Of a DNA stretch of 64,000 bases, positions 3,945 through 57,929 are shown in pieces; the stretch's first letter is position 1, and each line of letters begins with the position of its first letter. The notes under the pieces are model-generated. The model ran no database searches, was not told where the DNA came from, and was given only the letters and a program-made list of their open reading frames with translations. The DNA comes from Nitrospirota bacterium (lineage in GTDB: Bacteria > Nitrospirota > Thermodesulfovibrionia > Thermodesulfovibrionales > JdFR-85): contig JAYWMQ010000052.1 of the NCBI GenBank assembly GCA_035873375.1, positions 44,331-108,330 of the forward strand. Direction: 5' to 3'. The position numbers and the translations under genes were made by a program.

Positions 3945-3982
3945 CACAAAAAAGGGGGGTCTATAGAATCTATAGACCCCCC
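3945..3982 (-). terminator. rho-independent terminator closing the acs/nuoEFG-like operon
   Basis: Perfect 14-bp stem: aggggggtctatag (3952..3965), loop aat, ctatagacccccct (3969..3982). On the minus strand it is followed by a T-run (complement of aaaaaa at 3947..3952). It sits 35 nt downstream of the stop at 4017. Confidence 0.85.
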
Positions 3983-4016
3983 TTTATACCAGCATATGTC
4001 TTAAACATACATCTAT

Positions 4017-6026
4017 CTAAACCTCTGCAACCGCCTGTTCAACCTCTTTCAGCCACAGAAGCCTTGAACCGTTTATCATTGTCGTATTAACGGCCTCAAC
4101 AAGTTCTTCGGGGTTAAAGGCAAGGTCTTCTCTCTTGCTGAAGGGCACGGGTCTTGCCCCTGCAGTGACTGCCTTCTTCTCCTTTTTTACGTCAGCACTC
4201 TTTGCCGCTTTCAGGTCGATGTTCATCTTTTTTGCAATGCCTTTAAGTATCTCCCTGTGGGCCTTGGCCTCTCCAAAAGGTTCAATCGCCCTGTCAAGTG
4301 TCTTGAGCCTCCCCGTATAATCCACAACTGAGCCATCCGTCTCAAAAGATGTGGCTGCCGGAAGCACAAGGTCTGCCTCTTTTGCAAGCTCACTGAGATG
4401 TGAATGCTGAACAATCAGAAAATCCACACCCGAAGGCCTCTTAAAAGGCACTTCTCCAACGGCATAGAGAATCTTTTTTGCCACGCCGGAAGTCATCCCG
4501 GTATACGTTGCTCCCTCGCCTTTGAGTCCCATAAGAAGCGTCCCCTTGGCATTGGCCTCAATCGGCACTGCCAGGGCATCACCCTTCAGGAGGGATATAT
4601 TGGCAGAGGTCTCGTACAGCAGGGGGGAAGAGAGGATTACAGGTGACTTTGCCACTGAGTACATCTCTGCCACCATTGTCATATCCTCACTCAACTCCGC
4701 TTCAGGTATCTCAAGCCCCTCAGGTGCCTTGAGCCCCAGCCCTGTCAATGCCTTTGCCAAACCTCCAAGCACAACGGCCTCATCGCCCTGAAGGGTCTTT
4801 ATAGCTACGTCTGAAAGCCTTATCTGCCCTGAATTAATCACTACCAGCTTTGCCCCCCTTGAAACCATCTTTCTCAGGGTGGCATCAAGTGCTGGAAAGA
4901 CCCTCTGCCACTGTGACGGATTGATGCCGGCAAGCAGCACAAGGTCAGCACCTTCCAGGTCAACCTCGTCTCCTAAAAGTGAAGGTGCGTCTGCATAGAG
5001 GCTCACCGTGGAATCAATGTCTTTTACTCCGGTTGTCCCGGCAAAGTTCCTTAAAGTAAGGATATCCTCGTTAAGGAGATTTCCGGTGGTCACAATCCCT
5101 GCATCAGAAGGACTCCTGAGCAGATCAGCCGCTGTTGCATATGCCTCATCCCAGCTGACCGGCTTCAGCTCACCATCAATCCTTTTCAGGGGACTCATCA
5201 CCCTTGTATCCGCATTTATAAAATCAAAACCGAATCTTCCATAGGCACAGATATAATGCCCGGCCCTGCCGTCATCTGCTCCGGCATTCACCTTTGCCAC
5301 ATCCTTGTCATGAACGCTCACGACTGTATCACAGGCGTTGCCGCAGGAGAGACATACAGAGTTGTATCTCTCATACTCCCACTCCCTGCCCTTGCGCCAC
5401 CGGTCAGCCTCAAGGAGTGCGTTTACCGGACAGGCGTCAACACAACTGCCGCAGAAGGTACAGCCTCCCTCCTGAAGGGGTTTGTCTTCTGCTGTAACCA
5501 CCCTTGAACCCACCCCACGGCCCTGGAAGTCAAGGACTGACGTTCCCTGCTCCTTGCATACCCTTACACAACGTCCGCAAAGGATACAGTAATCAGGGTC
5601 ACGATTGATGAATGGATTTTTGTTATCAACCGGAAACCCGAACTTCTTTCTCGTAAATGATGATTCCTTTATCTCAAAGTCATAGGCATACTTCTGGAGC
5701 TCACACACCCCTGCCTTTGTACATGTCATGCAGTCAAGGGGATGCATTGAGAGGATCAGGTCTATAACGAACTTTCTGAGCTCCCTGATCTTTTCATTGT
5801 CGGTAACAACATCCATCCCTGCTTTCGTCTTCATGATACATCCTGTGGTCAACCTGCCGCCAATCTCAACCATACACATCCTGCAAGCGCCGATACCCCT
5901 CATACCCTTCAGATAACAGAAGTTCGGTATATGAACACCCACGCTCTCAGCGGCATCAATAAGATTCATACCTGCGGGAACTTTATACTCTGCACCGTTT
6001 ATACTGATTTTAACCATCTTACCCAT
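4017..6026 (-). CDS. NuoG-like Fe-S / molybdopterin-oxidoreductase-fold subunit (non-catalytic Fdh-like)
   Basis: 669 aa. N-terminal 2Fe-2S ferredoxin fold (ISINGAEYKVPAGMNLIDAA...CRMCMVEI), a His-ligated 4Fe-4S region and two ferredoxin motifs (CILCGRCVRVC, CTFCGSCVDACPVNAL). This is followed by an MopB-type CxxCxxxC (CLSCGNAC) and a NuoG-like body. Good SD (AAGGAGG, 7 nt, ATG). Confidence 0.85.
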   Translation of the reverse strand: MGKMVKISINGAEYKVPAGMNLIDAAESVGVHIPNFCYLKGMRGIGACRMCMVEIGGRLTTGCIMKTKAGMDVVTDNEKIRELRKFVIDLILSMHPLDCMTCTKAGVCELQKYAYDFEIKESSFTRKKFGFPVDNKNPFINRDPDYCILCGRCVRVCKEQGTSVLDFQGRGVGSRVVTAEDKPLQEGGCTFCGSCVDACPVNALLEADRWRKGREWEYERYNSVCLSCGNACDTVVSVHDKDVAKVNAGADDGRAGHYICAYGRFGFDFINADTRVMSPLKRIDGELKPVSWDEAYATAADLLRSPSDAGIVTTGNLLNEDILTLRNFAGTTGVKDIDSTVSLYADAPSLLGDEVDLEGADLVLLAGINPSQWQRVFPALDATLRKMVSRGAKLVVINSGQIRLSDVAIKTLQGDEAVVLGGLAKALTGLGLKAPEGLEIPEAELSEDMTMVAEMYSVAKSPVILSSPLLYETSANISLLKGDALAVPIEANAKGTLLMGLKGEGATYTGMTSGVAKKILYAVGEVPFKRPSGVDFLIVQHSHLSELAKEADLVLPAATSFETDGSVVDYTGRLKTLDRAIEPFGEAKAHREILKGIAKKMNIDLKAAKSADVKKEKKAVTAGARPVPFSKREDLAFNPEELVEAVNTTMINGSRLLWLKEVEQAVAEV

Positions 6027-6112
6027 ACTCGGTCCTCCTTAAGTTATACTCTAAAATTTAAACTACCACCCTTATCCCAGGCCGCAGATTTTCGCTGGTT
6101 TACGAGATTACC

Positions 6113-6845: not shown

Positions 6846-8738
6846 TTAAACCTTTCCTGCTTCTCCGGCAACCTTCTCTATCTTTACTGCATCAACCGGG
6901 CATGCGGCATAACACGCCTTACACTTTGTACAGTACGCCTCGTCAATAAAGAACTTATCCTTCAGTTCCCTTACAGCTCCAAATGCACATGCCTGCTTGC
7001 AGAGGCCACAGAGGAAACATTCGGTATGATCTATTCTGTAGCGGCCAAGACCGTTACAGGCCTTTGCCCTGCAGTACTTATCATAGATGTGCTCTTCATA
7101 CTCCTCCCTGAAATACCTCAGTGTACTCAACACAGGGTTGGAAGCACTCTGACCAAGACCGCAGAGTGAGCCCTCCTGGATAAGCCTGCCAAGTTCTTCA
7201 AGCCTCTCGATATCCCCGTGTGCGCCCTTGCCGCTGACTATCCTCTCAAGGATTTCGAGCATCTGCGAGGTACCAATCCTGCATGGCGGACACTTGCCGC
7301 AGGACTCGGATTGAGTAAAAGAAAGAAAATACCTTGCCATATCAACCATACAGGTATCCTCATCCACAACCACCATCCCGCCGGAGCCCATCATGGAGCC
7401 AAGCTCCCTGAGGGAATCAAAGTCAACCGGGTTATCGAGATAACTCTCAGGTATGCAGCCACCTGACGGTCCCCCGGTCTGTACAGCCTTGAATTTTTTA
7501 TTTCCCATAATTCCGCCGCCGATCTCAAATATTATCTCCCTGAGAGTGGTTCCCATCGGAACCTCGACAAGACCGGTATTCTTGACCTTGCCCGTCAGGG
7601 CAAAGACCTTTGTCCCGGGCGAATTTTTGGTTCCTATCGACAGGAACCAGTCAGCACCCTTTTCTATTATCGGAGGTACACAGACATATGTCTCGATATT
7701 GTTGAGGTTGGTCGGATACCCCCACAAGCCTCCGCCTGGCTCTGAGAGTCTCGGAGGTCTCGGCCTCGGGAATCCGCGCTCTCCCTCGATAGAGGCCACA
7801 AGGGCAGTTGATTCTCCACAGACAAAGGCACCTGCACCCTCACGTAAGTCAAGGTGAAAACTGAAATCAGTACCAAGTATATTATCACCAAGGAGGCCCA
7901 GATCTTCAGCCTGACCTATGGCTGTCTTCAGGTTCTTCACTGCAAGCGGATACTCATGACGGACGTAAATAAAACCAAACTCTGCATTAATTGCACGCGC
8001 ACAGATCAACATCCCCTCTATAAGGCTATGGGGGTCACCCTCCATGATGGCCCTGTCCATAAACGCCCCTGGATCACCCTCATCCCCATTGGCAACCACA
8101 AATTTTATATCTCCGGAGGCCTTTACAGTATGCCGCCACTTCTTTCCGGCAGGGAAACCTGCACCACCACGTCCGCGCAGGTTTGCCTTGTCCACTTCAT
8201 CGAGGATCGCTTCAGGGGTCATGCCGGTAAGGGCCTTTTCAAGTGCGGTGTAGCCGCCAACAGCTATGTAGTGGTCTATATTATTGGGATCAACAACTCC
8301 GTTGTATTTTAGTGCAATCCTGTACTGTTTTTTATAAAAAGGTAACTCGTCAGCCATCTCATAGGGTTCATGAAGGATCGAATCCCTGTAAAGGAGGTGC
8401 CTTACCGGAAAGCCCGCTGCAAGTGTATTTGTGACAATTTCCTGTGCATCCTCGGTCTTGACCCTCTGATAGAAATAACCAGTCGGCTCAACCTTCATGA
8501 GTGGACCCTTCTGACAGAGTCCCTGACAGCCTGTCTTGACAATATCTACGTCGATTCCCTTGTCCGCAGCACTCTTTTCGATATTATCAACTACCTTCCT
8601 TGCACCTGAGGCCATACAGGCTGTACCTGTACAGACCCGGATCCTCTCCTTGTCTTCCTTAAATGTCTCATCCTTGAGCAGGAGTCTCAGATTTTTCAGG
8701 TCTTCCATGTTTTTCAGTCTTGCCATATCACTCCTCAC
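6846..8738 (-). CDS. NuoF/HydB-like NAD(H)- and FMN-binding Fe-S subunit
   Basis: 630 aa. N-terminal thioredoxin-like 2Fe-2S domain (CTGTACMASG...CQGLCQKGP). NuoF core motifs GRGGAGFPAGKKW, ANGDEGDPGAFMDR and ESCGKCPPCRIG. C-terminal 2x[4Fe-4S] (CFLCGLCKQAC, CTKCKACYAACP). The track start at 8738 is GTG. The ATG at 8726, preceded by GAGGAG, may be the real start. Confidence 0.9.
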   Translation of the reverse strand: MRSDMARLKNMEDLKNLRLLLKDETFKEDKERIRVCTGTACMASGARKVVDNIEKSAADKGIDVDIVKTGCQGLCQKGPLMKVEPTGYFYQRVKTEDAQEIVTNTLAAGFPVRHLLYRDSILHEPYEMADELPFYKKQYRIALKYNGVVDPNNIDHYIAVGGYTALEKALTGMTPEAILDEVDKANLRGRGGAGFPAGKKWRHTVKASGDIKFVVANGDEGDPGAFMDRAIMEGDPHSLIEGMLICARAINAEFGFIYVRHEYPLAVKNLKTAIGQAEDLGLLGDNILGTDFSFHLDLREGAGAFVCGESTALVASIEGERGFPRPRPPRLSEPGGGLWGYPTNLNNIETYVCVPPIIEKGADWFLSIGTKNSPGTKVFALTGKVKNTGLVEVPMGTTLREIIFEIGGGIMGNKKFKAVQTGGPSGGCIPESYLDNPVDFDSLRELGSMMGSGGMVVVDEDTCMVDMARYFLSFTQSESCGKCPPCRIGTSQMLEILERIVSGKGAHGDIERLEELGRLIQEGSLCGLGQSASNPVLSTLRYFREEYEEHIYDKYCRAKACNGLGRYRIDHTECFLCGLCKQACAFGAVRELKDKFFIDEAYCTKCKACYAACPVDAVKIEKVAGEAGKV

Positions 8739-9277: not shown

Positions 9278-9327
9278 AGTATCCCCCGAATTTAATAATG
9301 TTGAATGCTAAAATCTAAAATCTCGAG

Positions 9328-11316
9328 TTACTTCACCCCTTCATGCGGTCTTGCTGCTGCCTCAAGCTTACGCCTGTCTGCCATGGTCATCAGTTTTCTC
9401 TCGGTACCAAATCTGCCAGGCTCATATTTTCTGAGTTTCAGTCCATCACGCTTAATGTCTATGGCTTCAAGTGTCTTCTTCAATATCTCTTCAGGGTCCG
9501 GAATAAAGTCAAACTTTCCGCCAAACCTCTCTTCCCACTGTTTTGTCATTATCTCCTGCACCTGACTGCTTGCCGCAACAGGGCTCTCTGAACCAAAAAT
9601 AACATACACCCCTGAAGCAACAAAGTAACATCCGATTGCAAGGGCCTTCTCACTCATCCATTCAGGCGCAATACCGACTGCCGGCAGACCGGAAATATCA
9701 TCGCCAAGCCCTCCTTCCTCGACCATCTGAGTTACCACGGTAAGTATCCTTGAATTGTCAACACACGAACCAAGATGAAGTACCGGCGGCACCCCAATGG
9801 CCTCACAGACCTCTCTGAGTCCCGGCCCCGCCATCTCAAGGGCTGTCTCAGGTGTCATAAAGCCCGCCTTGGCACATGCCGCAGCACCGCACCCGGTTGA
9901 CACTACAAGAACGTCATTTCTGACAAACTCCTCTGCAAGGTAATTATGCATACTGTCCTGGGCAATGCGCGGGTTGTTACAGCCAACTATCGCCACAACG
10001 CCCCTGATCCTTCCTGCTATAATGGCATCATTTAGGGGTCTGAAAGACGCCCTGAACCTCCCGCCCTGCATGTATTCAATATACTCATGTGAAAACCCTG
10101 CAATCACCGGAGTGGTCTCATGCACCCTGCTTCCCTCTGTGGTACGGTTGGCATAGTTATCAATGGCAAGCCTCAGCACCTCTCTTGCCACCTCTTTTGC
10201 CCTGTGTTCATCGTACTCTATATGAACTGCATCAATCATCTTCCCCTTGCTGGATGTGGTCACTATTTTTGTATGGAACTTCTTTGCAGCCTGGGCAATT
10301 GCCGGCATTATACACTGGACATCCACCATTATTGTCTCTGCAAGGCCCGTCATTACAGCCAGCTCCTGGTTAAGGAATCCACCGGCTGTGGGAATCCCGT
10401 GCCTCATCAGGACCTCATTGGCAGTACAGCACATCCCGACCAGGTTAATCCCCTTTGCCCCTTTCTGACTTGCATATTCAAGCATCCCGGACTCCTGAGA
10501 GGCCTCAACCATCATCTCAGCAAGTGAAGGCTCATGGCCATGAACCACAACATTGACCTCATCTTCCTTCATGATTCCTATACTCGCCTCAGAACGTTTT
10601 GGCGATGGGGTGCCAAAGAGTATGTCTGTAATGTCGGTGCTGAACATTGAGCCGGCCCACCCATCGGCAAGAGAGACCCTCAGTGCAGAGGTCATAAGGT
10701 TTTCAGGGTCCTGGTCCACACCCATGTTTGTCCTGTGCATGGCCTCGGCAACCTCACGGTCTACACCCCTGGGCACTATTCCCCACTTGCGCCAGATCTC
10801 CTGACGCTTCTCCGGTGCCCTCTTGATAAAGGATATCTCTCCCCTCTGCTGGCCAAACTGCGCGATAATATTCTCTGCCACCTCTTTTGCTATATCTTCC
10901 TTTGTCCTGCCCTCAGTTGAAATATCGAGTATACCGGCCAGTTTTTTCAGCTTCCCTTCGTCCTTGATCGTAAAGTCCGGGGCCTCCCCTGTGGATGCCG
11001 CAAGGAGTGTATAGGCCATATCCCTCGCATGGTCACTATGAGCTGCCGTGCCTGCAGCCACCATCCTCAGGAAATTCCTGGCAGTCACGACCGGAAGGGT
11101 TGCTCCGCATACACCTTCGGCATTCTCTTCAGCATCGGAACCAACAAGCCTGCAGGGCCCCATAAAACAGATCTTGCAGCATGCCCCCGAGTGTCCTATC
11201 GGGCATGGCTTTAATTTCTCCGCCCTGTCAAAGGCTGTCTCAAGACCATGCGACTCTGCCCACTCCACTATCTCCTCGGCAACCTTGTCGGCACTTTTTA
11301 TTACCTTTTCAGACAT
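9328..11316 (-). CDS. cooS: anaerobic Ni-Fe-S carbon monoxide dehydrogenase catalytic subunit (CODH of CODH/ACS)
   Basis: 662 aa. N-terminal B/D-cluster cysteines CPIGHSGACCKICFMGPCRL, with the HGHEP and C-cluster region conserved. SD is GGAGG, 6 nt, ATG. Adjacent to acsB. Confidence 0.95.
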   Translation of the reverse strand: MSEKVIKSADKVAEEIVEWAESHGLETAFDRAEKLKPCPIGHSGACCKICFMGPCRLVGSDAEENAEGVCGATLPVVTARNFLRMVAAGTAAHSDHARDMAYTLLAASTGEAPDFTIKDEGKLKKLAGILDISTEGRTKEDIAKEVAENIIAQFGQQRGEISFIKRAPEKRQEIWRKWGIVPRGVDREVAEAMHRTNMGVDQDPENLMTSALRVSLADGWAGSMFSTDITDILFGTPSPKRSEASIGIMKEDEVNVVVHGHEPSLAEMMVEASQESGMLEYASQKGAKGINLVGMCCTANEVLMRHGIPTAGGFLNQELAVMTGLAETIMVDVQCIMPAIAQAAKKFHTKIVTTSSKGKMIDAVHIEYDEHRAKEVAREVLRLAIDNYANRTTEGSRVHETTPVIAGFSHEYIEYMQGGRFRASFRPLNDAIIAGRIRGVVAIVGCNNPRIAQDSMHNYLAEEFVRNDVLVVSTGCGAAACAKAGFMTPETALEMAGPGLREVCEAIGVPPVLHLGSCVDNSRILTVVTQMVEEGGLGDDISGLPAVGIAPEWMSEKALAIGCYFVASGVYVIFGSESPVAASSQVQEIMTKQWEERFGGKFDFIPDPEEILKKTLEAIDIKRDGLKLRKYEPGRFGTERKLMTMADRRKLEAAARPHEGVK

Positions 11317-11333: not shown

Positions 11334-11410
11334 ATTATTGACGATTTTCGATTGACAATTTTCAGTTTTAGTCCTGAAAAATAGTCAATGGTCAATCATC
11401 AATAGTCAAT
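11334..11410. repeat. palindromic spacer element built from ATTGAC/GTCAAT words (cooS-acsB spacer)
   Basis: Left arm attattgacgattttcgattgacaattttcag (11334..11365) faces right arm ctgaaaaatagtcaatggtcaatcatcaatagtcaat (11374..11410). It fills almost the whole intergenic gap. Confidence 0.75.
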
Positions 11411-11411
11411 C

Positions 11412-13610
11412 TCATATTATCGATTCCATCTCAAGGGCTGGATGACCGGCCTCAGTCAGAAACTCAACCAGCTTCTCGGAGTCCTCACATACGGTCTCAT
11501 CAGCAATCTTGTCAAGCAGGTCAGGAACGCCTTCTGCTTCGGCTATCTGCTGAAACTTGTCTTTCACCCTCTCCTTAATCGCCTTTGTCATCCAGACAAT
11601 CCTCTTTATACCACCATCACCAAACAGGAATTTCTTGCTGGTTATAAAATTCACACCAATTCCCATAAAGCCCGGGGTCTGCACCCCGCCGCCCACTGTT
11701 CCGGCAAGTGTCGAGAATTTCATGCCTATCGGGGTCATCCCTGTATGTCCGCGCTGAACAATCATTACACCATTGGCCTCGGGTATGATTGCAACGATAC
11801 ATTCAAAGCAGCCACAGGAGGTCATGGGATTTTCCATGATTGTATAAAGGTTCAATGTCTCAACCGCCCCGCCTGACGCCTGTTTCAGATAATCATCAAC
11901 ACCCGTATAGCGGCCGAACCTCGGGTCAACAAGCTCACCCTTTGGAACAGGCTGGTTTCCGCCGGTCGGGTCGATCTCGTAGGCTGCCTTGCCGTCAAGC
12001 CAGTTATAGGCACCACAGAGCCCGAGTCTCTCAGGTGTTATGACACAGACATGACTCGGGGCAAAGGACTGACAGAGCAGACAGGAATAAAAGGTATCCA
12101 CGGTCTCATCGGTAAGGGATGCAAGCCTCTCATCACGCAGCTTCCAGTCAATCCTTGCCTCCTCTCTCAACTTGACAACATCCTCCTCGTTGGTAAAGAG
12201 CGTGACCGCTACCTTATCAACTATGGTGCTGAACCTCTTGTGTGTCATTGCATGGTGTATCTTTCCAATATCCTCAAGGCTGAAGCCGGCCTGCTTTGCG
12301 GCATGGCTGATCCTTATCCAGTTAATATCCCTCTGTCCCATGTGCCATATGCCCTGGCCTTCGTTTATATTATGGTGAAGTCTCCGCTCGACAATGGAGA
12401 GGAAATCCGGCTGCATCTTTCTTCCTGCAATCTCAACCAGGATTCCAAGGGGCATTACACCTCCCTGTTCATACCTCTCCTTCCAGTTCTCACCGATAAT
12501 GTTTACCTTGCCGTCCTCTATCTCTTCAAGCTCTCTCAGCCTTGCCCATTCAAAGGCAGGTGAGCGCGTTCCGCCAAACTCGATAAAGGTCTCCTCCTTA
12601 CGGATCCTCTCACCCTCAAACGCTGGGCCGTAGGCAATCGGAATCGGCGGTTTTTCAACAAGTACCTTAAGCCCCCTCACCTCAATCGCCTTCTGGACAA
12701 TCTTGTCGTGATCAAGCTCTTTATCCACCTCTTCATACGTACATACACCCGTGGGGTGAATCACGGGGACATCAGTATCACAGATGGCCGGGAAGCCCAT
12801 ATTTATAGCGCCGGCCCCTGTTGCCCACTTGACATCATCAAGCCCGCCCAGGGGAAGGGCAAAGGCAAAGACCCTGTCTTTCTGATATTTCAAATTGCCC
12901 TTGTAGTCTCCGGGTTTTACACCCCCAAAGATCATGGAGGCCCTTATTGCCCAGTCAAGGGCATAAAGTGTATGCTCGGTCTCCGTGCCAAGTGGCACTA
13001 TATATACATCCCAGCCAAGCTCCACCTTCTTTCTCAGAAGCTGCTTGGTAACGCTGTCACCATTGGAACTTCCGGAAAGGAAGACAAGGATGTTCTTCTC
13101 CTGCAATTCCCTGACAATCCTTACCGCTGTATCATCATCAGGGGCTGCACCTATAATAGCCGCAAACCCCGGCATCCTTCCATCAACAAGCTGAATACCA
13201 AGATTACGCTGTACTGTGTCTGTAATAAACCCGTTATAAACATAACCTGTCTCAGGGTCTTTTGTCGGCTCCAGACCCTCAATATACCTCAATGCAAGCC
13301 AAATCTCCTCAGCAAAAAGTGTGGCCATCCCGGAATCAAGGGCCTCTCCCAGATAAGGCGTCCATATCTTCTCCTCAGGCTCATCATGAAGAAGATCCTG
13401 GGTCATCCTCAGTGCGGTCTTCATGTCCTTAATCGTCTTTACCTCAAAACCCGTAATACCATAAATCAACGGCAGGGCATAGGCAGTGTCTGGAAACTCG
13501 AAATGGTAATCCTCACCCTTTTCAGCAATAACCTTCTGTAGTAAATCCTCAGCCTGCCTGAAGACTTTATGTGACCCTCTTATAGCAGCCGAGGCTATTA
13601 TCTTTGACAT
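11412..13610 (-). CDS. acsB: acetyl-CoA synthase (CODH/ACS A-cluster subunit)
   Basis: 732 aa, the size and sequence style of bacterial AcsB. A-cluster Cys-Gly-Cys motif present (MTSCGCFECIVA). SD is AGGAGG. Confidence 0.95.
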   Translation of the reverse strand: MSKIIASAAIRGSHKVFRQAEDLLQKVIAEKGEDYHFEFPDTAYALPLIYGITGFEVKTIKDMKTALRMTQDLLHDEPEEKIWTPYLGEALDSGMATLFAEEIWLALRYIEGLEPTKDPETGYVYNGFITDTVQRNLGIQLVDGRMPGFAAIIGAAPDDDTAVRIVRELQEKNILVFLSGSSNGDSVTKQLLRKKVELGWDVYIVPLGTETEHTLYALDWAIRASMIFGGVKPGDYKGNLKYQKDRVFAFALPLGGLDDVKWATGAGAINMGFPAICDTDVPVIHPTGVCTYEEVDKELDHDKIVQKAIEVRGLKVLVEKPPIPIAYGPAFEGERIRKEETFIEFGGTRSPAFEWARLRELEEIEDGKVNIIGENWKERYEQGGVMPLGILVEIAGRKMQPDFLSIVERRLHHNINEGQGIWHMGQRDINWIRISHAAKQAGFSLEDIGKIHHAMTHKRFSTIVDKVAVTLFTNEEDVVKLREEARIDWKLRDERLASLTDETVDTFYSCLLCQSFAPSHVCVITPERLGLCGAYNWLDGKAAYEIDPTGGNQPVPKGELVDPRFGRYTGVDDYLKQASGGAVETLNLYTIMENPMTSCGCFECIVAIIPEANGVMIVQRGHTGMTPIGMKFSTLAGTVGGGVQTPGFMGIGVNFITSKKFLFGDGGIKRIVWMTKAIKERVKDKFQQIAEAEGVPDLLDKIADETVCEDSEKLVEFLTEAGHPALEMESII

Positions 13611-13627
13611 CCCTTACCTCCTTAAAT

Positions 13628-13674
13628 TCGTTATACGTTATACGTTAGCTGACAAGCCTGCAAGCTGACAAGCC
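13628..13674. repeat. short tandem/direct repeats in the acsC-acsB spacer
   Basis: cgttatacgttatacgtta (7-mer acgttat reiterated), followed by gctgacaagcc (13648..13658) and gctgacaagcc (13664..13674). Confidence 0.8.
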
Positions 13675-13729
13675 TTTTGTTCGTATATTTACCTGAAAAC
13701 AACCTTTTTCTGTTGCCATCCGCCACTCT

Positions 13730-15073
13730 TTACGCTGCAGCAGAGCGAAGAAAAGTGGGAAGGGCATTCGCCTCCCTTGGTCCGACCGTGACCTTCCAGC
13801 CCTCAAGCTTGTCCTCAATAGCACCGCTGAGGATCGCCACATAACCCGGAATTATTAATTCCCGGTGATTAACCTCGTTCTCGATCCCGCTCTCCTTTAT
13901 GAAATTTGCTATTTTTGAACCTGTGAATTTACCGGCTGCCCAGGCAGTAAGCACTGACAGGCCCTCACAATCCATAATGGCAAGATGTGCAGGAACCTTT
14001 GAATTCTCCACCTCACCCGATACTATAAAGTAGGTAAGCGAGAAATTAGTGGTGATAAGAAGGGGTGAGTCAGGGGTTGCTTCTCCGATCTTGTATATCT
14101 TCTGCTCAACCTGCATAGGCACCTGCGGGTCTGTGTAAACATTCTGCCTCAGAGTAAAGAGTGCGAGATTCTTCCATTTCTCCGCAGAACTGATAACTAT
14201 TGTGGATGCATACTTTGCAATACCAAGCCCTGCAATTAGGGATTCAAAGAGTGCGTCGCTGCGCTGTGCAAAGTTTATTACAGGATATCCAAGGGGCTTG
14301 AAGTTCTTTTTTATAGCCGCCCTCCTGATAAAAGTGTTGTACTCAAGCATCTCTTTTGCAGAGCCTGCTCCGGGGTCTATTAACATATCCTCAACCCCTA
14401 AGGACTTTATCTTCTCCGTAAGAGATGAAAGGGCTTCAAGGCCGTCTGCCTTCACACCCAATGCAGCCTTGGCAGACCTGGCAATCTCTGCCATTTTTTC
14501 GGCATTTGCCTCTGTAGCCCCATAGAGAACCGCATTCTTTCCATTAAAGGGTTTTATGGCGGCGGCAGCAGCATCTGTATTTTCCGTACCAACAATTACT
14601 GCTACATCCGGGGCCTTTTGAGCAACCTTTTCCGCCAGGGTCCCGAGCCTTCCTGCATCTCCGGAGTCATTACTCAAATATACGGCATCTATCCTCAGAA
14701 GCTGCCCTACCCTGTTGATCTCGGAGCCAAGGACATCCTGGATCTTTGCCTCAACCACATCATCGCTGTCCGTGTCCTTAATCTCAAGTGCAAGGGCCGG
14801 AGGATTGACAAACTTCTTTTCGTGCCTGAAAAGCACAGTCTCCTCTCCCATCTTTACAGCCCTCTCACCAGCGCCAAGTGTTACCGGCCTTACAGGTGGA
14901 GCCGAGGCCTCACCAAGTGTTGCCTTTGCCTCATCAGAGACATCAGGACAGGCATCCAGAGAGACTTGTCTCTGGGCAAGCTTCATTGCAAAGGCAAGGC
15001 ATGTGGGAAAACCGCACTTCTTGCAATTTGTCTTTGGTAGTAATTTAAATATCTGAACCCCGGTTAATGCCAT
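13730..15073 (-). CDS. acsC: corrinoid iron-sulfur protein large subunit
   Basis: 447 aa. N-terminal 4Fe-4S motif TNCKKCGFPTCLAFAMKLA followed by a TIM-barrel and corrinoid-binding body. Sits in an acsB-acsC-acsD-acsE context. Confidence 0.93.
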   Translation of the reverse strand: MALTGVQIFKLLPKTNCKKCGFPTCLAFAMKLAQRQVSLDACPDVSDEAKATLGEASAPPVRPVTLGAGERAVKMGEETVLFRHEKKFVNPPALALEIKDTDSDDVVEAKIQDVLGSEINRVGQLLRIDAVYLSNDSGDAGRLGTLAEKVAQKAPDVAVIVGTENTDAAAAAIKPFNGKNAVLYGATEANAEKMAEIARSAKAALGVKADGLEALSSLTEKIKSLGVEDMLIDPGAGSAKEMLEYNTFIRRAAIKKNFKPLGYPVINFAQRSDALFESLIAGLGIAKYASTIVISSAEKWKNLALFTLRQNVYTDPQVPMQVEQKIYKIGEATPDSPLLITTNFSLTYFIVSGEVENSKVPAHLAIMDCEGLSVLTAWAAGKFTGSKIANFIKESGIENEVNHRELIIPGYVAILSGAIEDKLEGWKVTVGPREANALPTFLRSAAA

Positions 15074-15083
15074 CTCTTACCTC

Positions 15084-15119
15084 CGTTATGTCTAATTCAT
15101 TCGTTATGTCTAATTCATT
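15084..15119. repeat. 18-bp perfect tandem duplication in the acsD-acsC spacer
   Basis: cgttatgtctaattcatt occurs at 15084..15101 and again at 15102..15119. Confidence 0.85.
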
Positions 15120-15155
15120 TATATCAAACTGATTAAACCTGACTCATTTACCTCA

Positions 15156-16094
15156 TTACATAAGTTCATCCATAAGCTGCTCCACTGCCTCTACTGCCTT
15201 CGGATGACGCATTATCAACAACTCCGAGCCTGCCATCAGAAGTGATGAAGCTGTCATGGCCTCCCAGGCAATGCCCCTCTCCTCAAGACTGCCCCACTCG
15301 GGAAGCACGTCCTCCGGGGCCTGTGTCTCCTTTATCTTCCATACATACATCCCCACATCTGCAAGCATCGGCGGCTGCATGACCGCATCATTCTGCGCCA
15401 ATGCGGCAAGCCTTATCCGCTCCATAACTGAATATGTATACTCAAGCCCGTAACCAAGTGCGGAACACATCGGGTCTGTAATAAGCTTTTCCTTGTCAAA
15501 GCCCATCTGCGTAAGCAGGATGTTGAGCTGTTTTGACAGGTTAATGTCCAGTTCACTCATGGCAATAAGTTTATGCCCGTTTGCCATTGCCGCTGCTGCA
15601 ATGGTCTTGTAGTTTGCCTCCTGGGCCTTGCCGATTATACAGTTATGCCCTTTTGCCGCCTCAGCCGCCTTCACCAGAACCTCCGAGTCCTTCTCCACAT
15701 GATTGCTGCCGAGGACAATAAGGGGAACCTTTATTGCCCCAAGGACGTCACTCACGGTCCTGGCGGCATCCTCTGCTGTCAGATTCTTGCTGTCGGGATG
15801 TGTCCCAACAAGCCTAATGACAATGGCCTTTGCCTTCAGGTCCTCCTCGCAGTATTTTGCCCAGGTTACAGGATCCCCGCTTACACCGTCAAAAACCTTC
15901 CTTACAGTCTCGGGCCAGTCTTCAGGAGAAACATCCTGTATCTCATATGCAATCAGGGGCCTGTTCGGAATCTCTCCTTCAAAGGAGTGAAAGGGTAGGG
16001 TATTCTCACCTCCAAAGGTCTGTTGAACCCCGGTTCCTATTGTCACAGGAAAGACCCTGCCTGCAAAGCTTTCCTTTGGTGGTACAAATGCCAT
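15156..16094 (-). CDS. acsD: corrinoid iron-sulfur protein small subunit
   Basis: 312 aa. Position between acsE and acsC, with a TIM-barrel-like sequence typical of CFeSP delta. SD is AAGGAGG. Confidence 0.9.
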   Translation of the reverse strand: MAFVPPKESFAGRVFPVTIGTGVQQTFGGENTLPFHSFEGEIPNRPLIAYEIQDVSPEDWPETVRKVFDGVSGDPVTWAKYCEEDLKAKAIVIRLVGTHPDSKNLTAEDAARTVSDVLGAIKVPLIVLGSNHVEKDSEVLVKAAEAAKGHNCIIGKAQEANYKTIAAAAMANGHKLIAMSELDINLSKQLNILLTQMGFDKEKLITDPMCSALGYGLEYTYSVMERIRLAALAQNDAVMQPPMLADVGMYVWKIKETQAPEDVLPEWGSLEERGIAWEAMTASSLLMAGSELLIMRHPKAVEAVEQLMDELM

Positions 16095-16188
16095 TTTATT
16101 CCTCCTTAATTCTTGATTAAGTATATCTCTTTATTGCTCACAGTTTTAATTTTTCGTCTTTCCCGTAAAAATCTGAAAGCTTCTTCAG

Positions 16189-16971
16189 TTACATCTCCAG
16201 ATAAGAGTGGGCATACAGTGTCCTGTTCATAATAACGTCTATTGTCTTGACGGTCTCGATAACCTCCGCAGGGTCTGCAATAGCTGCAGTAAGCCCCTCA
16301 TAAATAAGAAGTGCGAGATAGTATTTATTGAGGATATGCCTGACGTTTTTGGGACAACCATTGGATATATTGCTCAGGCCGACAACAGTCTTTATGGGGG
16401 GATCATTCAGTTCCTGAAACATCTTTATAGTCCTGATCACCTTTACCGCCTGCTCCTGTGTGGTGGCAATCTGAAGGACAAGAGGGTCCAGATAAAGGTT
16501 TTCAAGGGACAGGCCATACTCCATTGCCCTTGCCATAATCTCTGCTGCAATAGCAGACCTCTCTTCCTCGTCCGCAGGCAGCCCGCCCTTGCCTACAGTC
16601 AATCCTATAATCAGACTATCGTATTTGGCTGCAAGTTCAAGCATCGGAAAACGCTCAGGGTCATTGGAAGTAGAGTTAATCATGGGTCTGCCGTAGTCGT
16701 TGTTGTGAACCTTGAGGCCGGCCTCAATCGCTGCATAATTCGTGGTATCAAGACATACAGGAAGTGATACAGCCTCCTGAATGGTGGTAACCATCCATTC
16801 CATAAGCTCTTCACCACCATCCTCTGCAGGGCCGATATTGGCATCAATCATCCCTGCACCGGAGTTCTTCTGCGCAAGGGCAATCTCCTGAATGGGTCCC
16901 TTGTCCCGCTTCATCATGGCTTCTCTAACGCGTTTTGCAATTATACTAAGTTTCTCTCCAATAATAAGCAT
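16189..16971 (-). CDS. acsE: methyltetrahydrofolate:corrinoid/iron-sulfur protein methyltransferase
   Basis: MLIIGEKLSIIAKRVREAM...DANIGP matches the AcsE/MeTr (pterin-binding) N-terminus. The track start at 16980 is a GTG embedded in the SD (GGAAGGAGTG). The ATG at 16971 has proper spacing. Confidence 0.9.
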   Translation of the reverse strand: MLIIGEKLSIIAKRVREAMMKRDKGPIQEIALAQKNSGAGMIDANIGPAEDGGEELMEWMVTTIQEAVSLPVCLDTTNYAAIEAGLKVHNNDYGRPMINSTSNDPERFPMLELAAKYDSLIIGLTVGKGGLPADEEERSAIAAEIMARAMEYGLSLENLYLDPLVLQIATTQEQAVKVIRTIKMFQELNDPPIKTVVGLSNISNGCPKNVRHILNKYYLALLIYEGLTAAIADPAEVIETVKTIDVIMNRTLYAHSYLEM

Positions 16972-17048
16972 ATCAAGCACTCCTTCCTGGAATTTTTTAT
17001 TTGTTATTTTTCATCTTTCATTTTTCATTTATTAAAAAAGAGAACTCT

Positions 17049-17178
17049 ACCACAGAGACACAGGAGATAAAACAAGAAAACTTTGTAAAACAGTCTTTAA
17101 TCTCTGTGTCTCAGTGCCTCAGTGTTTTATATTCCCCTGACATAAAAAATCTTAGTTTTTACCACAGAGGCACAGAGA
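17049..17178. repeat. CACAGAG-type palindromic element plus a solo arm in the 356-bp cooC-acsE spacer
   Basis: accacagagacacaggagat (17049..17068) faces atctctgtgtctcagtg (17100..17124). A further solo arm accacagaggcacagaga lies at 17161..17178, nearly identical to 28752..28770. Confidence 0.75.
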
Positions 17179-17336
17179 AAAAACCCGGATCCAAAAACCA
17201 TGTTTTAAGCCTGTTCCTTAAAGTTACCCGAATACAGGAATAAAGCAAGGGTTGAAAAGGATAACATAAAATATAGCGTATGGTAAAGCATTGCACTATT
17301 TAAAATTATTATAATTTTATAGAGAATAAGGGAGGT

Positions 17337-18104
17337 TTAGGGGATATTGAGACCGTCAAGTATGGTGAAAACAGAGCGGAGCGCAGGGGAGTTATCAGGC
17401 AGCTCAATCAGAGGTCTCCCCTGAAGGTCATATTCAAATATTTTTCCATCCTGGGGAACAAGCCCTGCACAATGAAGGCCCAGCCCATCGGCAAGTTTCG
17501 TGAGGGTCTCACCCTCCTCACCGGAGACCCTGTTTATAATCAGGACACTCCTTTCGATATCAAGTTTCAGCTCATCCACAAGATCCCTGATCCTCCCGGC
17601 CGTCTGTATTCCCTTTACAGTCGGGTCACTCACTATCAGCAAAAGATCCACCTTGTGTGTGGTCCTCCTGCTGAGATGCTCCATACCCGCCTCATTGTCA
17701 ATCACCACATAGGGATAGCGCTCTGCAAGTATGTCCGTATATTTTCTGATAATATTATTGGCCGCGCAGTAACAGCCCGGCCCTTCGGGCCTGCCCATCA
17801 CCAGCAGATCAAAACCCTTTGCCTCTATCAGGGCCTGATTAATCTGATATTCAAAGAGCTCGTCCATACTCATGCCCCCCGGCCTTTCACTGCCGGAACG
17901 TATGGTCTCAAGTGAGGACTCCCTCAGTTGTCCCACAGAGGCATGAACCTTTACGCCAAGCGCTTCATTCAGGCATGCGTTACTGTCAGCATCAACTGCA
18001 AGTACAGGCCCCCGCCTCTTCTCAACAAGATACCTCACTGTCAGCCCAGCTATACTCGTCTTTCCTGTACCGCCTTTACCTGCAAGAGCAATCAAAAACG
18101 ACAT
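17337..18104 (-). CDS. cooC: CODH nickel-insertion accessory ATPase (CooC/AcsF family)
   Basis: 255 aa. Deviant Walker A at the N-terminus (IALAGKGGTGKTSIAG), a MinD/ParA-like fold and the CxC-type motif region GPGCYC. Confidence 0.92.
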   Translation of the reverse strand: MSFLIALAGKGGTGKTSIAGLTVRYLVEKRRGPVLAVDADSNACLNEALGVKVHASVGQLRESSLETIRSGSERPGGMSMDELFEYQINQALIEAKGFDLLVMGRPEGPGCYCAANNIIRKYTDILAERYPYVVIDNEAGMEHLSRRTTHKVDLLLIVSDPTVKGIQTAGRIRDLVDELKLDIERSVLIINRVSGEEGETLTKLADGLGLHCAGLVPQDGKIFEYDLQGRPLIELPDNSPALRSVFTILDGLNIP

Positions 18105-18133
18105 ACCATCTCTCCTCCCTGTATTTTTAAAGA

Positions 18134-21130: not shown

Positions 21131-21183
21131 TATCAAAAATCTCCTGTACACTTGAAATAACTTGCCACAACTGTAAAGATTAT

Positions 21184-21278
21184 TCAGCCGCAGATTTTCG
21201 CAGATAAACGCAGATTATCAAGACTTTAGAGAAATTTTGCTTTACTATCTGCGTGAATCTGCTAAAATCTGCGGCTGA
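21184..21278. repeat. ~90-bp palindromic intergenic element, GCAGAT family, copy 1
   Basis: tcagccgcagattttcgcagataaacgcagat (21184..21215) faces atctgcgtgaatctgctaaaatctgcggctga (21247..21278). About 93% identical to the copy at 23128..23215. Confidence 0.85.
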
Positions 21279-21291
21279 AATCCGTTGACAC

Positions 21292-22308
21292 TCAGAACAG
21301 CCGGTTGGGAACATTTATCTTCAGGTGTTCATAAGCGCCGCGTGTGGCAAGCCTGCCCCTTGGTGTCCGTTCTATAAACCCCTCCTGAAGGAGAAAGGGT
21401 TCATAAACATCCTCAATCGTCTCCTTATCCTCCCTCACAGAGGCTGCAAGGGTGTCCACACCTACGGGGCCGCCGGCATATTTTTCAATAATTGTAAGCA
21501 GGAGCTTCCTGTCCATATCGTCAAGCCCCCTGTCATCCACATCCATGGCCTCAAGGGCGTACCGGGCTATCTCTATCCCGATCGTACCGTCACCCTTCAC
21601 CTGGGCAAAATCCCTCACCCTCCTCAGGAGCCTGTTTGCAATCCTCGGTGTACCTCTTGAACGGCGGGCAACCTCAAAGGCGGCATCTTCGGTTATATGG
21701 ACATCAAGGATGGTTGAGGAACGTTTGACCACCCTTATAAGCTCTTCAGGCCTGTAGTATTCGAGCCTCACAATCACACCAAAACGGTCCCTGAGGGGAA
21801 ATGTCAGCAGCCCTGTGCGGGTGGTGGCACCAACGAGTGTGAAGTGCGGCAGGTTTACCTTGAGTGAACGGGCATTTGGGCCCTGTCCAATAATAATATC
21901 AAGGTGAAAATCCTCCATGGCAGGATACAGGACCTCTTCGACGATCCTGGGCATCCGGTGTATCTCGTCAATAAAGAGGATATCCTGATCCGAGAGGTTT
22001 GTAAGTATTGCGGCAAGGTCTCCCTGCCTCTCGAGCACCGGACCTGATGTGGTCTTCAGGCTTACGCCAAGCTCATTGGAGATAATATGTGCAAGCGTGG
22101 TCTTTCCAAGCCCTGGCGGGCCGTAGAAGAGAACATGGTCAAGTGCCTCTCCACGGTGTCTTGCCGCCTGAATATAAACATGGAGGTTATCCTTTAACCG
22201 CTCCTGCCCTATAAACTCTTCAAAACTCCTGGGCCTCAGGGTTACATCCAGGAGCAGATCATCCTGAGATACCTCTGGCTCAACCCCACTTTCATCCGTC
22301 TCTTTCAG
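21292..22308 (-). CDS. ruvB: Holliday junction branch migration helicase RuvB (start extended beyond the ORF-track call)
   Basis: Track ORF 21292..22038 begins mid-protein ([10 protein letters not shown]...). The frame stays open upstream and encodes [18 protein letters not shown]...[26 protein letters not shown] (Walker A). There is no in-frame ATG, GTG or TTG before the stop at 22333..22335. A CTG at 22306..22308 lies 5 nt after GGGAGG (22314..22319). Confidence 0.85.
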
Positions 22309-23127: not shown

Positions 23128-23215
23128 GCCGCAGATTTTGCAGATAAACGCAGATTGTCAAGACTTTAGAAAAATTCTGCTTTAATATCTGCGTGAATCT
23201 GCGAAAATCTGCGGC
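23128..23215. repeat. ~90-bp palindromic intergenic element, GCAGAT family, copy 2
   Basis: gccgcagattttgcagataaacgcagattgtcaagactttagaaaaattctgctttaatatctgcgtgaatctgcgaaaatctgcggc. Same orientation as copy 1. Confidence 0.85.
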
Positions 23216-23223
23216 AGAGAGTC

Positions 23224-28711: not shown

Positions 28712-28751
28712 AACAACCTCCTTGACCTCAATGTAGTACCGTCAAAACTTA

Positions 28752-28836
28752 ACCACAGAGGACACAGAGATTATTTTAAAGAAAGAGCTTAAGACCTTAA
28801 AAAAATTCTTATAATCTTCAAGTGTTTCTCTGTGGT
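28752..28836. repeat. CACAGAG-type palindromic element upstream of paralog B
   Basis: accacagaggacacagaga (28752..28770) faces ttctctgtggt (28826..28836). The centre, cttaagaccttaaaaaaattctt, resembles the centre of the GCAGAT elements (caagactttagaaaaattct). Confidence 0.7.
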
Positions 28837-28918
28837 GAAATTCTTTCTTCTCTCTATTTTATGGATATCTTATAGATATTTAATTTAATAACTACCAAAA
28901 ATATAATCTGAGGGAATT

Positions 28919-37957: not shown

Positions 37958-38488
37958 ATTAACCTGGCAAATAAATACAGAGTTCTTTTGCTGGCTGAGT
38001 GGTTAGCTTTGCTGACAAATATGTCTCCCTGAATAGTTGCCAGGTTAATAAGTAAGGTTGTTGGAAGCGATATGATAGAGTCTTCACTCATTCTCGTCCC
38101 GAAATACTTCGGGGCTCCGAGGAAACCGTTCAGACTCAATCATATCGCTTCCTTCTCTTGAGCAAACCTTTTTGTTACTGGACCCTGCAATCTATATGAG
38201 AGAGACATATTCGTCAAAATCAACCACTTAAGAACTTGTTGAGAAAACCCTTGATTTGTCACCCTGAACTTGATTCAGATACTCATCGGTCACGAGCTCA
38301 GCGCCACATTGAGGGAGAAAACCATTGAGTTGTCACCCTGAACTTGATTCAGGGTCTATACTACAACGTTACATGTTGATTCTTAGAGATTCTGAAATAA
38401 ATTCAGAATGACATATACTTTGTTTTTTTCTGTTTGTGCTACAAAACTTTAACCATCTAAAAACTCTGTATTTATTTGCAGGCTTAAT
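37958..38488. repeat. ~530-bp non-coding block bounded by ~27-nt imperfect inverted repeats (MITE-like), full of nested hairpins and a 38-nt direct repeat
   Basis: attaacctggcaaataaatacagagtt (37958..37984) is the imperfect reverse complement of aactctgtatttatttgcaggcttaat (38462..38488). There is an inner inverted copy ttgccaggttaat at 38037..38049. A 21-bp inverted repeat ggaagcgatatgatagagtct / agactcaatcatatcgcttcc lies at ~38064..38152. A direct repeat gagaaaacc[c/a]ttga[t/g]ttgtcaccctgaacttgattcag occurs at 38241..38278 and 38315..38352. Confidence 0.6.
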
Positions 38489-42396: not shown

Positions 42397-42428
42397 GGAG
42401 TTGAGGAGTTGAGGAGTTGAGGAGTTTA
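42397..42428. repeat. 8-bp tandem repeat (ggagttga x3, then ggagttta) upstream of guaB
   Basis: Read directly: ggagttga ggagttga ggagttga ggagttta, ending 36 nt before the guaB ATG. Confidence 0.9.
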
Positions 42429-42440
42429 TATCTGCTGTGA

Positions 42441-43931
<1,491 letters not shown>

Positions 43932-50963: not shown

Positions 50964-51072
50964 TTCTCGCAAAGGCGCCAAGCTCGCAAAAAAACATAAT
51001 TAGAGTTTGTCCATTTTTCTGTCGATCCTGTCGTTCTTCGCTGTCTTTGCGAGCTTGGCGCCTTTGCGAGAA
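50964..51072. repeat. perfect 27-bp inverted repeat (TTGCGAG family) between the decarboxylase gene and speE
   Basis: ttctcgcaaaggcgccaagctcgcaaa (50964..50990) is the exact reverse complement of tttgcgagcttggcgcctttgcgagaa (51046..51072), with a 55-bp centre. A solo arm-like copy gcgcctctgcgagaaatta lies at ~53565..53583. Confidence 0.9.
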
Positions 51073-53549: not shown

Positions 53550-53582
53550 CTTACTTAGCGTTCTTTGCGCCTCTGCGAGAAA

Positions 53583-54059: not shown

Positions 54060-54083
54060 GTACAGAATAACTCCGGGAATTCT

Positions 54084-54388
54084 ATCCGCAGATTACTCAG
54101 ATTTCGCTGATTTCAAGAAAAAAATAAAAAAACTGTAATACTTCAACATCTTAGACTGGATTACAGGATAATCAATAACTTCTCTTTCTTCTCTACGGCT
54201 TACGGATAAAAAACGAAACTACTTTTTTAGACAGGATTTACAGGATTTTCTTCTTTCTTTTAAAAAAACAAGAAAAAACTATCCTCTTCTTCATTTTTAT
54301 CCTGTTAATCCTGTTAATCCTGTCAGGCTTGATTCTATTCTTTTGTTTTTATCCTGTCAGATCTGCGCAATCTGTGTAATCTGCGGAT
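54084..54388. repeat. 305-bp composite palindromic element (GCAGAT-type outer arms, ACAGGAT/ATCCTGT inner words)
   Basis: Outer arms atccgcagattactcagatttcgctgat (54084..54111) and atctgcgcaatctgtgtaatctgcggat (54361..54388). Inner words ctggattacaggataat and gacaggatttacaggatttt face atcctgttaatcctgttaatcctgtcagg and tatcctgtcag. Confidence 0.75.
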
Positions 54389-54391
54389 TGT

Positions 54392-57918: not shown

Positions 57919-57929
57919 TTGATTATTGA

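Follow-up and report, generated by a model that had tools for sequence, protein, structure and literature searches.

Short tandem-word repeats in the spacers of a Nitrospirota CODH/ACS operon are part of a genome-wide intergenic trait, with one hairpin that is probably retained by selection

We analysed a 64,000-nt stretch of a Nitrospirota (Thermodesulfovibrionales) genome, from contig JAYWMQ010000052.1 (hereafter the window), which carries on its minus strand the Wood-Ljungdahl operon for carbon monoxide dehydrogenase/acetyl-CoA synthase (CODH/ACS), with short repeats in several of the spacers between its genes. These spacer repeats are a genome-wide intergenic trait and are not specific to the operon. 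We consider it probable that they belong, as ordinary members, to a population of short tandem-word DNA that extends across the lineage, in which the hairpin between acsB and acsA (cooS) is the selected exception. The units of this DNA would be words of 7-10 nt, arranged in solo arrays or in pairs of inverted arrays with a variable loop between them. Most copies would be neutral or selfish and merely tolerated in spacers, including an 18-bp and a 16-nt duplication, the heptamer arrays and the CACAGAG foldbacks of the acsE leader. A preliminary description of this DNA had proposed instead that every spacer of the operon carries its own repeat, acting on the mRNA in the manner of repetitive extragenic palindromes (REPs) and bacterial interspersed mosaic elements (BIMEs).

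Array coverage was measured as exact 7-mers recurring at 6-20 nt, with dinucleotide shuffles as the baseline. Such arrays cover 11.5% of the bases in the 34 intergenic segments of the window versus 1.8% in shuffles (z ~12), and 2.1% of its coding DNA versus 1.6% in shuffles. At the orthologous locus of a close relative, L001, the intergenic coverage is 11.6%; at the more distant L002, L004, L006 and L008 it is 0.6-3.8%, which is the shuffle level. At least five vocabularies (GCAGAT, CACAGAG, GTCAAT, ACAGGAT and CGCAAAG) are found within 64 kb, each at several unlinked loci (2-5 loci per family), with a word density 4-9 times higher in intergenic DNA, and the same elements also lie between unrelated genes. 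Many of them share one layout: 2-4 tandem words, then a loop that varies, then the words inverted, over a total of about 75-110 bp. GTCAAT pairs (GTCAATNGTCAAT) give 11 matches in the window (47.6% GC) versus 0.46 expected from shuffles, CACAGAG pairs 4 versus 0.53, and GCAGATN4GCAGAT, with its 10-nt period, 8 versus 0.39. Tandem Repeats Finder (TRF) reports periods of 7-10 nt at 11380, 13629, 16992, 22327, 39060, 21189 and other sites.

The hairpin that we regard as the exception occupies the spacer between acsB (11412-13610) and acsA/cooS (9328-11316), where TRF delimits inverted ATTGAC/GTCAAT heptad arrays at 11336..11410 on the minus strand (element C1). Its 5' arm, an ATTGAC array, begins 1 nt past the acsB stop codon, and its 3' arm, a GTCAAT array, ends 8 nt before the acsA Shine-Dalgarno sequence. 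This palindrome, already recognised in the preliminary description, folds at -26.8 kcal/mol, with a z of -5.7 versus shuffles.

Ten related acs loci were compared with the window; identity to it at four-fold sites is 81-82% for L001, 81% for L547, 72% for L548, 44% for L549 and 34% for L002. The ATTGAC...GTCAAT arms are present in the window, L547, L548 and L549, folding at -27 to -34 kcal/mol (z of -3.8, -4.7 and -4.2 in the three relatives, respectively). An early reading in which this hairpin was not conserved had been based on distant orthologues only, and was overturned by these closer relatives. Between the window and L549 the right arm is identical at 18/20 positions, and at 34/36 through to the Shine-Dalgarno sequence, and the left arm at 17/21. 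The arms are therefore 81-90% identical, where four-fold sites are 44% identical (P ~4e-6 for 32/40 or more); the hairpin apex, at 46%, is at the neutral level, and the loop is unrelated. As an internal control, the L549 orthologue of A2, a foldback upstream of ruvA, has decayed (z -1.0), and the L549 locus contains no other TTGAC arrays that could have acted as donors. The acsB-acsA hairpin thus appears to be the sole spacer element that bears the mark of purifying selection.

If the hairpin acts, its most likely target would be the polycistronic mRNA. The whole spacer is predicted to fold into one stem-loop, whose base would bring the stop codon of acsB, 1-9 nt 5' of the stem, beside the acsA ribosome-binding site, 8 nt 3' of it. 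A stop codon at the 5' foot and a ribosome-binding site 8 nt from the 3' foot would fit a role in 3'-end protection, in coupling, or in both. As a barrier, the hairpin would shield the upstream acsE-acsB segment from 3' exonucleases; alternatively, or in addition, it could couple acsA translation to acsB termination. The idea of a REP-like intercistronic hairpin is plausible for this spacer, where the element is retained and its arms are conserved, and a role in setting subunit stoichiometry seems plausible for this hairpin only. As a general account the idea is only partly supported: two of the four spacers concerned are unstructured, and the elements fail the REP definition.

Across the relatives, the spacer elements fall into three classes: the acsB-acsA hairpin, direct repeats adjacent to ribosome-binding sites, and CACAGAG foldbacks in the acsE leader. 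To the second class belong the direct repeats between acsC (13730-15073) and acsB, at 13629..13673 on the minus strand, where TRF finds ACGTTAT (ACGTATA) x2.7 together with a duplication of about 16 nt (GCTTGTCAGC...). The heptads stand directly 5' of the acsB Shine-Dalgarno sequence, and the spacer is unstructured (z +0.45). Between acsD (15156-16094) and acsC, TRF finds an exact 18-bp unit in 2.0 copies at 100% identity (15084-15119, minus strand), within a direct-repeat region (15084..15128) that adjoins the acsC Shine-Dalgarno sequence and contains copies of TTGAnATAA; this spacer is also unstructured (z -0.2). Both sets of repeats are as they had been described. By contrast, the spacer between acsE (16189-16980) and acsD, at 16095-16188, has no repeat, and the claim that every spacer carries one falls with it.

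These direct repeats turn over rapidly. Two ancestral TTGAnATAA copies directly 5' of the acsC Shine-Dalgarno sequence are common to five relatives in the alignment, and the window-specific 18-bp duplication, whose unit is single-copy in L001 and L547, adds a third. L547 lacks the 16-nt duplication 5' of acsB, and the ACGTATA heptads are decayed in L548 and absent in L549. A heptamer array between acsA and nuoE (GAGATTT/TAGATTT; 9308..9323, minus strand) also varies in copy number among the relatives in the alignment. Genomes that are ~91-95% identical thus differ in the copy number and content of their arrays, a turnover of the slippage type, and operons with an AcsB identity of 87% or less have none of these words. 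The comparison of orthologous spacers that the preliminary description had called for therefore has a divided outcome: the acsB-acsA hairpin is kept in L547, L548 and L549, the 18-bp duplication is private, and the CACAGAG elements occur in three genomes only, namely the window, L001 and L547.

The third class lies in the 356-nt gap between cooC (17337-18104) and acsE, where the reported CACAGAG palindrome and solo arm were confirmed: a CACAGAG/CTCTGTG foldback (B1, 17044..17126) in the acsE 5' leader, and a solo arm of two CACAGAG words at 17163..17183, both on the minus strand. The CACAGAG region has a z of -2.1; among the four spacers listed earlier, it and the acsB-acsA spacer are the only ones that fold better than shuffles. 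A GAAAAAT (ATTTTTC) heptamer array of 5.6 copies (16992..17030, minus strand; TRF), about 17 nt 5' of the acsE Shine-Dalgarno sequence, had been missed, and is mostly absent in L001. Just past the cooC stop codon, the alignment shows a conserved promoter-like motif (TTATAA..TTTT..AT / TTTACC / TATGnTA; 17262..17320, minus strand) with blocks that are invariant in 6 loci; in loci where cooC is elsewhere, the motif sits just upstream of acsE. Its distance to the acsE start is 40-55 nt in L004 and L006 and ~265 nt in the window and L001, a difference that is due to the CACAGAG elements and the heptamer array, found only in the window, L001 and L547. The foldbacks are recent insertions in the acsE 5' leader, downstream of the motif. 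Since the block is invariant in 6 loci with otherwise unrelated spacers, it is probably a promoter or operator of acsE-acsA, separate from cooC.

Other insertions and repeats were observed around the related operons. L001 (5311-5527) has an insertion of ~190 nt upstream of cooC that resembles a MITE (miniature inverted-repeat transposable element), with terminal inverted repeats GGAGTGGCATGACGAACCC; the window equivalent (18105-18133) is a 29-nt spacer, and related cactcattctcgtcccg motifs are found in the window at ~31840, 38100 and 57440. A unit of ~160 bp (...gtcattccggcagtccttaagccggaatc...) is present in about 5 tandem copies upstream of cooC in L008 (1700-2350), and as a single copy inserted in the acsE-acsD spacer of L548 (7300-7481). 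In L549 (58% GC) the acsC-acsB spacer (9866-10000) contains a strong GC-rich hairpin with a 12-bp stem (z -5.0), and the acsE-acsD spacer (7426-7531) holds eight TTGAATT/TTGAGTT heptads, in which the dominant word is TTGAAT, not TTGAC.

Outside the operon, A1 (21183..21279), a GCAGAT decamer-array foldback with 3+3 words and a 17-nt AT-rich centre, lies between ruvB and an M1 peptidase gene and folds at -50.8 kcal/mol (z -8.4). A second GCAGAT foldback, A2 (23128..23216; z -9.1), separates an M6 peptidase gene from the ruvA promoter. The CACAGAG words that had been noted near 28752 form a foldback, B2 (28750..28842), with the same centre as A1 and A2. This centre, AAGACYTTARARAAATTYT, has exactly three exact matches in the window (21220, 23160 and 28791) versus 0.28 expected, and no further match within three mismatches. 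Given the common centre and the CCRCAGA termini, the GCAGAT and CACAGAG elements are one superfamily with diverged arms. The single superfamily proposed earlier does not extend to the TTGAC family, in which the AT-rich centre was not found. A1 and A2 are 93% identical and their orthologues 83-87%; paralogues that are more alike than orthologues suggest dispersal, gene conversion or replacement. Orthologous GCAGAT elements have kept their arms and scrambled their loops.

The GTCAAT words recur, on the minus strand, at three of the four other places first suggested: in C2 (22327..22428), a TTGAC/GTCAAT (GTTAAT) heptad hairpin between ruvA and ruvB whose right arm stops 8 nt short of the ruvB Shine-Dalgarno sequence; in C3 (39060..39093), a solo TCAATAG x4.9 heptad array directly past the stop codon of a ResA-like gene; and in C4 (54975..54991), a pair of GTCAATA heptads at the pgeF 3' end. 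The fourth (~57917-57935) is a single TTGAC word and is not significant. Two further inverted pairs use other words. Element D, of ACAGGAT/ATCCTGT 9-mer arrays (54230..54324), falls in the 332-nt spacer from tsaE to a CBS-domain gene (54060-54391), which consists almost entirely of such arrays and GCAGAT-type arms. Element E (50964..51072), a perfect 27-bp inverted repeat (CTCGCAAAGGCGCCAAGCTCGCAAA) around a 55-nt loop, is another intra-operon hairpin, between a pyridoxal phosphate-dependent decarboxylase gene and speE; it is built of CGCAAAG/CGCCAAG words and has a partial copy at 53550-53582.

With respect to genes, A1, A2, C1, C3 and E begin 0-12 nt past a stop codon, and in several cases an array ends 0-17 nt 5' of a Shine-Dalgarno sequence. 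Both strands of all the hairpins fold about equally, and G.U counts, used as a test of selection at the RNA level, revealed no consistent sense-strand asymmetry. None of the elements was called as an intrinsic terminator in a scan for sigma-70 promoters and terminators, and there was no enrichment; the hairpins are followed by A-rich sequence, with no U-tract. A search of Rfam gave no match at the gathering threshold and, below it, only generic long-hairpin matches to plant miRNA precursors.

Beyond the lineage, GCAGAT x3 at the 10-nt period was found at 120 or more loci in species-representative genomes, versus ~17 chance matches in all 596 Gb. Among the matches listed, to which the statements on GCAGAT arrays in this paragraph refer, the hosts are cyanobacteria, Planctomycetota, Acidobacteriota, Verrucomicrobiota, Nitrospirota, NC10, Chloroflexota, Bacteroidota and Methanoperedens, and the typical cross-phylum form is aaCCGCAGATGAACGCAGATGAACGCAGAT, a loop and the inverse. 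An inverted partner lies within 250 nt in 37% of the arrays, 72% are outside long open reading frames (ORFs), convergent contexts are commoner than divergent ones (16 vs 5), and 39/106 are 30 nt or less from a stop codon. We could find neither an orientation bias (26 vs 21), nor a recurrent gene family within 2.5 kb of 131 arrays (maximum 5/120 loci), nor an autonomous partner or linked transposase near the arrays.

In viral contigs, CACAGAG x3 was found in 89 stretches, GCAGAT x3 in 69 and GTCAAT x3 in 113, compared with 26 for the control word GACTAG, which is not an exact permutation of GTCAAT and gives a rough baseline only. The viral CACAGAG matches include 26 exact inverted pairs with the window termini ACCACAGAG...CTCTGTGGT, in DNA of 59-70% GC, and the same words are kept in genomes of 48-70% GC. 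Some viral or proviral IMG/VR contigs (L254, L260, L279, L368, L382 and L485) carry 4-6 inverted arrays of GTCAAT, CACAGAG or GCAGAT in ~10 kb, and in L260 and L279 a small GC hairpin stands between GTCAAT arrays and the AATGGAC arrays with which they are paired. The idea of a shared vocabulary, in which the GCAGAT, CACAGAG and GTCAAT words travel together in other taxa, was rejected: the families do not co-occur outside the lineage. A metagenome scan with the AT-rich centre returned 120 matches, none with flanking words, which are chance matches, and a literature search by sequence strings did not find these arrays.

Several observations weigh against the reading that we prefer. The acsB-acsA hairpin is dispensable and has been lost in two close relatives: in L001 the whole spacer is replaced, and in L005 the right arm alone remains. 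L004, L006 and L008 have no hairpin at this place. The arms show conservation of primary sequence instead of covariation, and this could be due to a word-binding protein, or else to constraint from the adjacent ribosome-binding region combined with gene conversion. Equal folding of both strands, with no G.U asymmetry, makes a palindrome that matters at the DNA level possible, and any role in the RNA is putative. Slippage alone does not readily explain why the words are constant across 48-70% GC. Finally, arrays are somewhat denser in the operon spacers than in other intergenic DNA (25% vs 9.5%; Mann-Whitney p 0.015, Fisher test of presence p 0.17), an excess that a purely neutral model does not predict. 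Two further features of this spacer are that the register in which the heptad arms pair differs from genome to genome, and that the L002 spacer has a hairpin of different words (GTCATG x2 / CATGAC x2).

That each spacer repeat is a dedicated REP/BIME-like mRNA module setting CODH/ACS subunit ratios, as first proposed, seems to us quite unlikely. The hairpin conserved against a saturated neutral background, the two TTGAnATAA copies kept 5' of the acsC ribosome-binding site in five relatives and the higher array density of the operon spacers would all agree with it, and hairpins of STRRs (short tandemly repeated repetitive DNA) between hupS and hupL have been proposed to act in this way (PMC2670836). 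However, two of the four spacers are unstructured, each duplication is either private or polymorphic, the CACAGAG elements were inserted recently and in three genomes only, operons at 87% AcsB identity or less work without any repeat, and the same elements stand between unrelated genes. At the other extreme, all of this could be neutral or selfish palindromic DNA, the acsB-acsA hairpin included, with complementarity maintained at the DNA level, for instance by hairpin-templated repair or by gene conversion from further copies of the family. We regard this as unlikely: conversion within an element does not slow substitution, yet the arms are far above the neutral level of identity to L549, whose locus has no other TTGAC donor and in which the A2 orthologue did decay. 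Still, arms are more conserved than loops also in A1 and A2, outside the operon, the strands fold equally, L001 has lost the hairpin with no obvious replacement, and the arrays of other phyla, among the matches listed, have no linked gene or orientation bias.

The arrays might also be phased binding sites, either on DNA for a nucleoid protein or global regulator, or on mRNA 5' of start codons for a protein of the S1/Csp/CsrA type; the former has been proposed for Geobacter metallireducens (PMC2700814) and the latter for TAACTGA repeats (PMC4679880). Such sites would account for word identity, and not only complementarity, being kept across 48-70% GC and across phyla, for the 10-bp helical period of the GCAGAT words and for the arrays that end 0-17 nt 5' of a Shine-Dalgarno sequence. 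We nevertheless find this very unlikely, given at least five vocabularies in 64 kb, variable spacing of the paired arrays, families that do not co-occur in other taxa and, among the matches listed, no linked candidate for the binding protein. Chance or purely local slippage, with no family relationship, can hardly be the explanation: the 18-bp and 16-nt duplications are local events, but for the word families this is refuted by the shuffle tests and by recurrence at unlinked loci and in other genomes. A bolder and rather unlikely extension is that the GCAGAT/CACAGAG foldbacks and the TTGAC heptads are cross-phylum families whose words are kept uniform by a sequence-specific mobilising enzyme or a horizontally moving word-binding protein, one copy having been domesticated, in this Nitrospirota clade, as a hairpin coupling acsB to acsA/cooS expression.

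Under the reading that we prefer, of lineage-wide tandem-word DNA with one selected hairpin, what is new here is a Nitrospirota lineage with a dense, multi-family array population, in which graded relatives allow gain, loss, copy-number change and one long-term retention to be read directly. Short tandem-word arrays, and inverted pairs of them, have a record of 35 years in cyanobacteria, Geobacter and Beggiatoaceae. For post-transcriptional control of a CODH/ACS operon, the acsB-acsA hairpin is a concrete candidate site. There is also a warning for annotation: striking repeats within an operon need not be specific to it, and arrays create spurious small ORFs.

The acs gene set of the window is complete and follows the order cooC, acsE, acsD, acsC, acsB and acsA/cooS on the minus strand, and then nuoE/F-like and formate-dehydrogenase-like genes. 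The nearest AcsB proteins come from metagenome-assembled genomes of hydrothermal-vent Nitrospirota/Thermodesulfovibrionales, and no identical AcsB was matched in the public collection. The formate-dehydrogenase-like gene is followed, at 3951-3985, by a bidirectional intrinsic terminator of canonical form, in which runs of A and T flank a perfect 17-bp palindrome (AAAGGGGGGTCTATAGA); this indicates that operon ends here use ordinary GC-rich terminators, unlike the word-array hairpins. At 42397-42426, GGAGTTGA is repeated x3.8 at 100% identity, ~40 nt upstream of a plus-strand gene starting at 42465. Copies of a hairpin repeat, TTGTCACCCTGAACTTGATTCAGGGTC, at 38270-38400 are matched by the same element in the BMS3Abin07 relative (L008, ~6020-6110), which points to another dispersed family common to the order. 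In ruvB (22296-22300; L001 ~1000; L549 1347) there is no ATG, GTG or TTG in the first ~85 residues; a frameshift was ruled out, as the frame is continuous from a CTG preceded by a GGAGG box. Both L001 and L549 keep CTGAAAGAGACGGA, and CTG is the likely start codon.

Among known repeats, REPs and BIMEs resemble the window elements in being extragenic palindromes, often within operons and just 3' of a stop codon. A REP hairpin reportedly stabilises the upstream malE mRNA (Newbury and colleagues, 1987, are said to have found this), and some BIMEs contain a central site for integration host factor (IHF). As defined in PMC3733652, however, a REP is a single palindrome of 20-40 nt with a GTAG/CGTC head and a cognate transposase, RAYT (REP-associated tyrosine transposase). 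That head is absent here, the arms being word arrays that start with CCGCAGA, CCACAGA or ATTGAC, and no transposase, RAYT included, was found among the 20 window ORFs scanned. Foldback transposons, of which the FB elements of Drosophila are an example, and MITEs are similar in their inverted arms of short tandem sub-repeats, variable loops and dispersed copies. No direct repeat that could be a target-site duplication flanks A1 or A2 (n=2).

A closer likeness is to arrays of tandem words. The TAACTGA repeats of Beggiatoaceae lie just 5' of start codons and are patchy across phyla, with no known vehicle (MacGregor 2015, PMC4679880). Among long simple sequence repeats (LSSRs) of 5-11-nt units, heptamers are the commonest and slippage has been blamed (Mrazek et al. 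2007, as cited in PMC4679880). The window shares with these the patchy distribution, the dominance of heptamers and arrays placed 5' of starts; however, TAACTGA arrays are direct, orientation-biased and made of one word, whereas the window has many words, often in inverted pairs. STRR heptamers form hairpins between hupS and hupL, for which transcript stability or translational coupling has been proposed (PMC2670836). Cyanobacterial STRRs, like the window arrays, are tandem heptamers of several families per genome, non-coding and with inverted arrays between operon genes. Their units are heptamers only and their hosts heterocystous cyanobacteria, the words reportedly being CCCCAGT, TTGGTCA and CAACAGT (attributed to Mazel and colleagues, 1990), whereas the window has periods of 7-10 nt, an 18-nt duplication and other words. 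The window repeats, in a Nitrospirota/Thermodesulfovibrionales host, are therefore not STRRs in the strict sense.

The genome of G. metallireducens holds 8-24 pairs each of opposite-strand sites with 3-5 tandem repeats of 7-9 nt, in several word classes (1-3), at variable distance and ~80-115 bp overall, which were named putative global regulator binding sites (Aklujkar et al. 2009, PMC2700814). They are intergenic, including between proB and proA, and absent from G. sulfurreducens, and binding of IHF/HU to them is a prediction only (PMC2700814). In the window, A1, A2, B1, B2, C1, C2, D and E are likewise tandem-word sites paired on opposite strands, and the likeness extends to several word classes and to positions within operons, although G. 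metallireducens belongs to another phylum, its words are mostly different and a common AT-rich centre is not among the features reported; the class 2 word there, TCTCCGTS, and the CTCTGTG of the window are a single base apart. With head-to-tail units of 5-11 nt, in excess of composition, mainly non-coding and changing in copy number, the spacer repeats of this operon belong to the known, poorly understood kind of DNA that includes STRRs, long simple sequence repeats and paired tandem-repeat sites.

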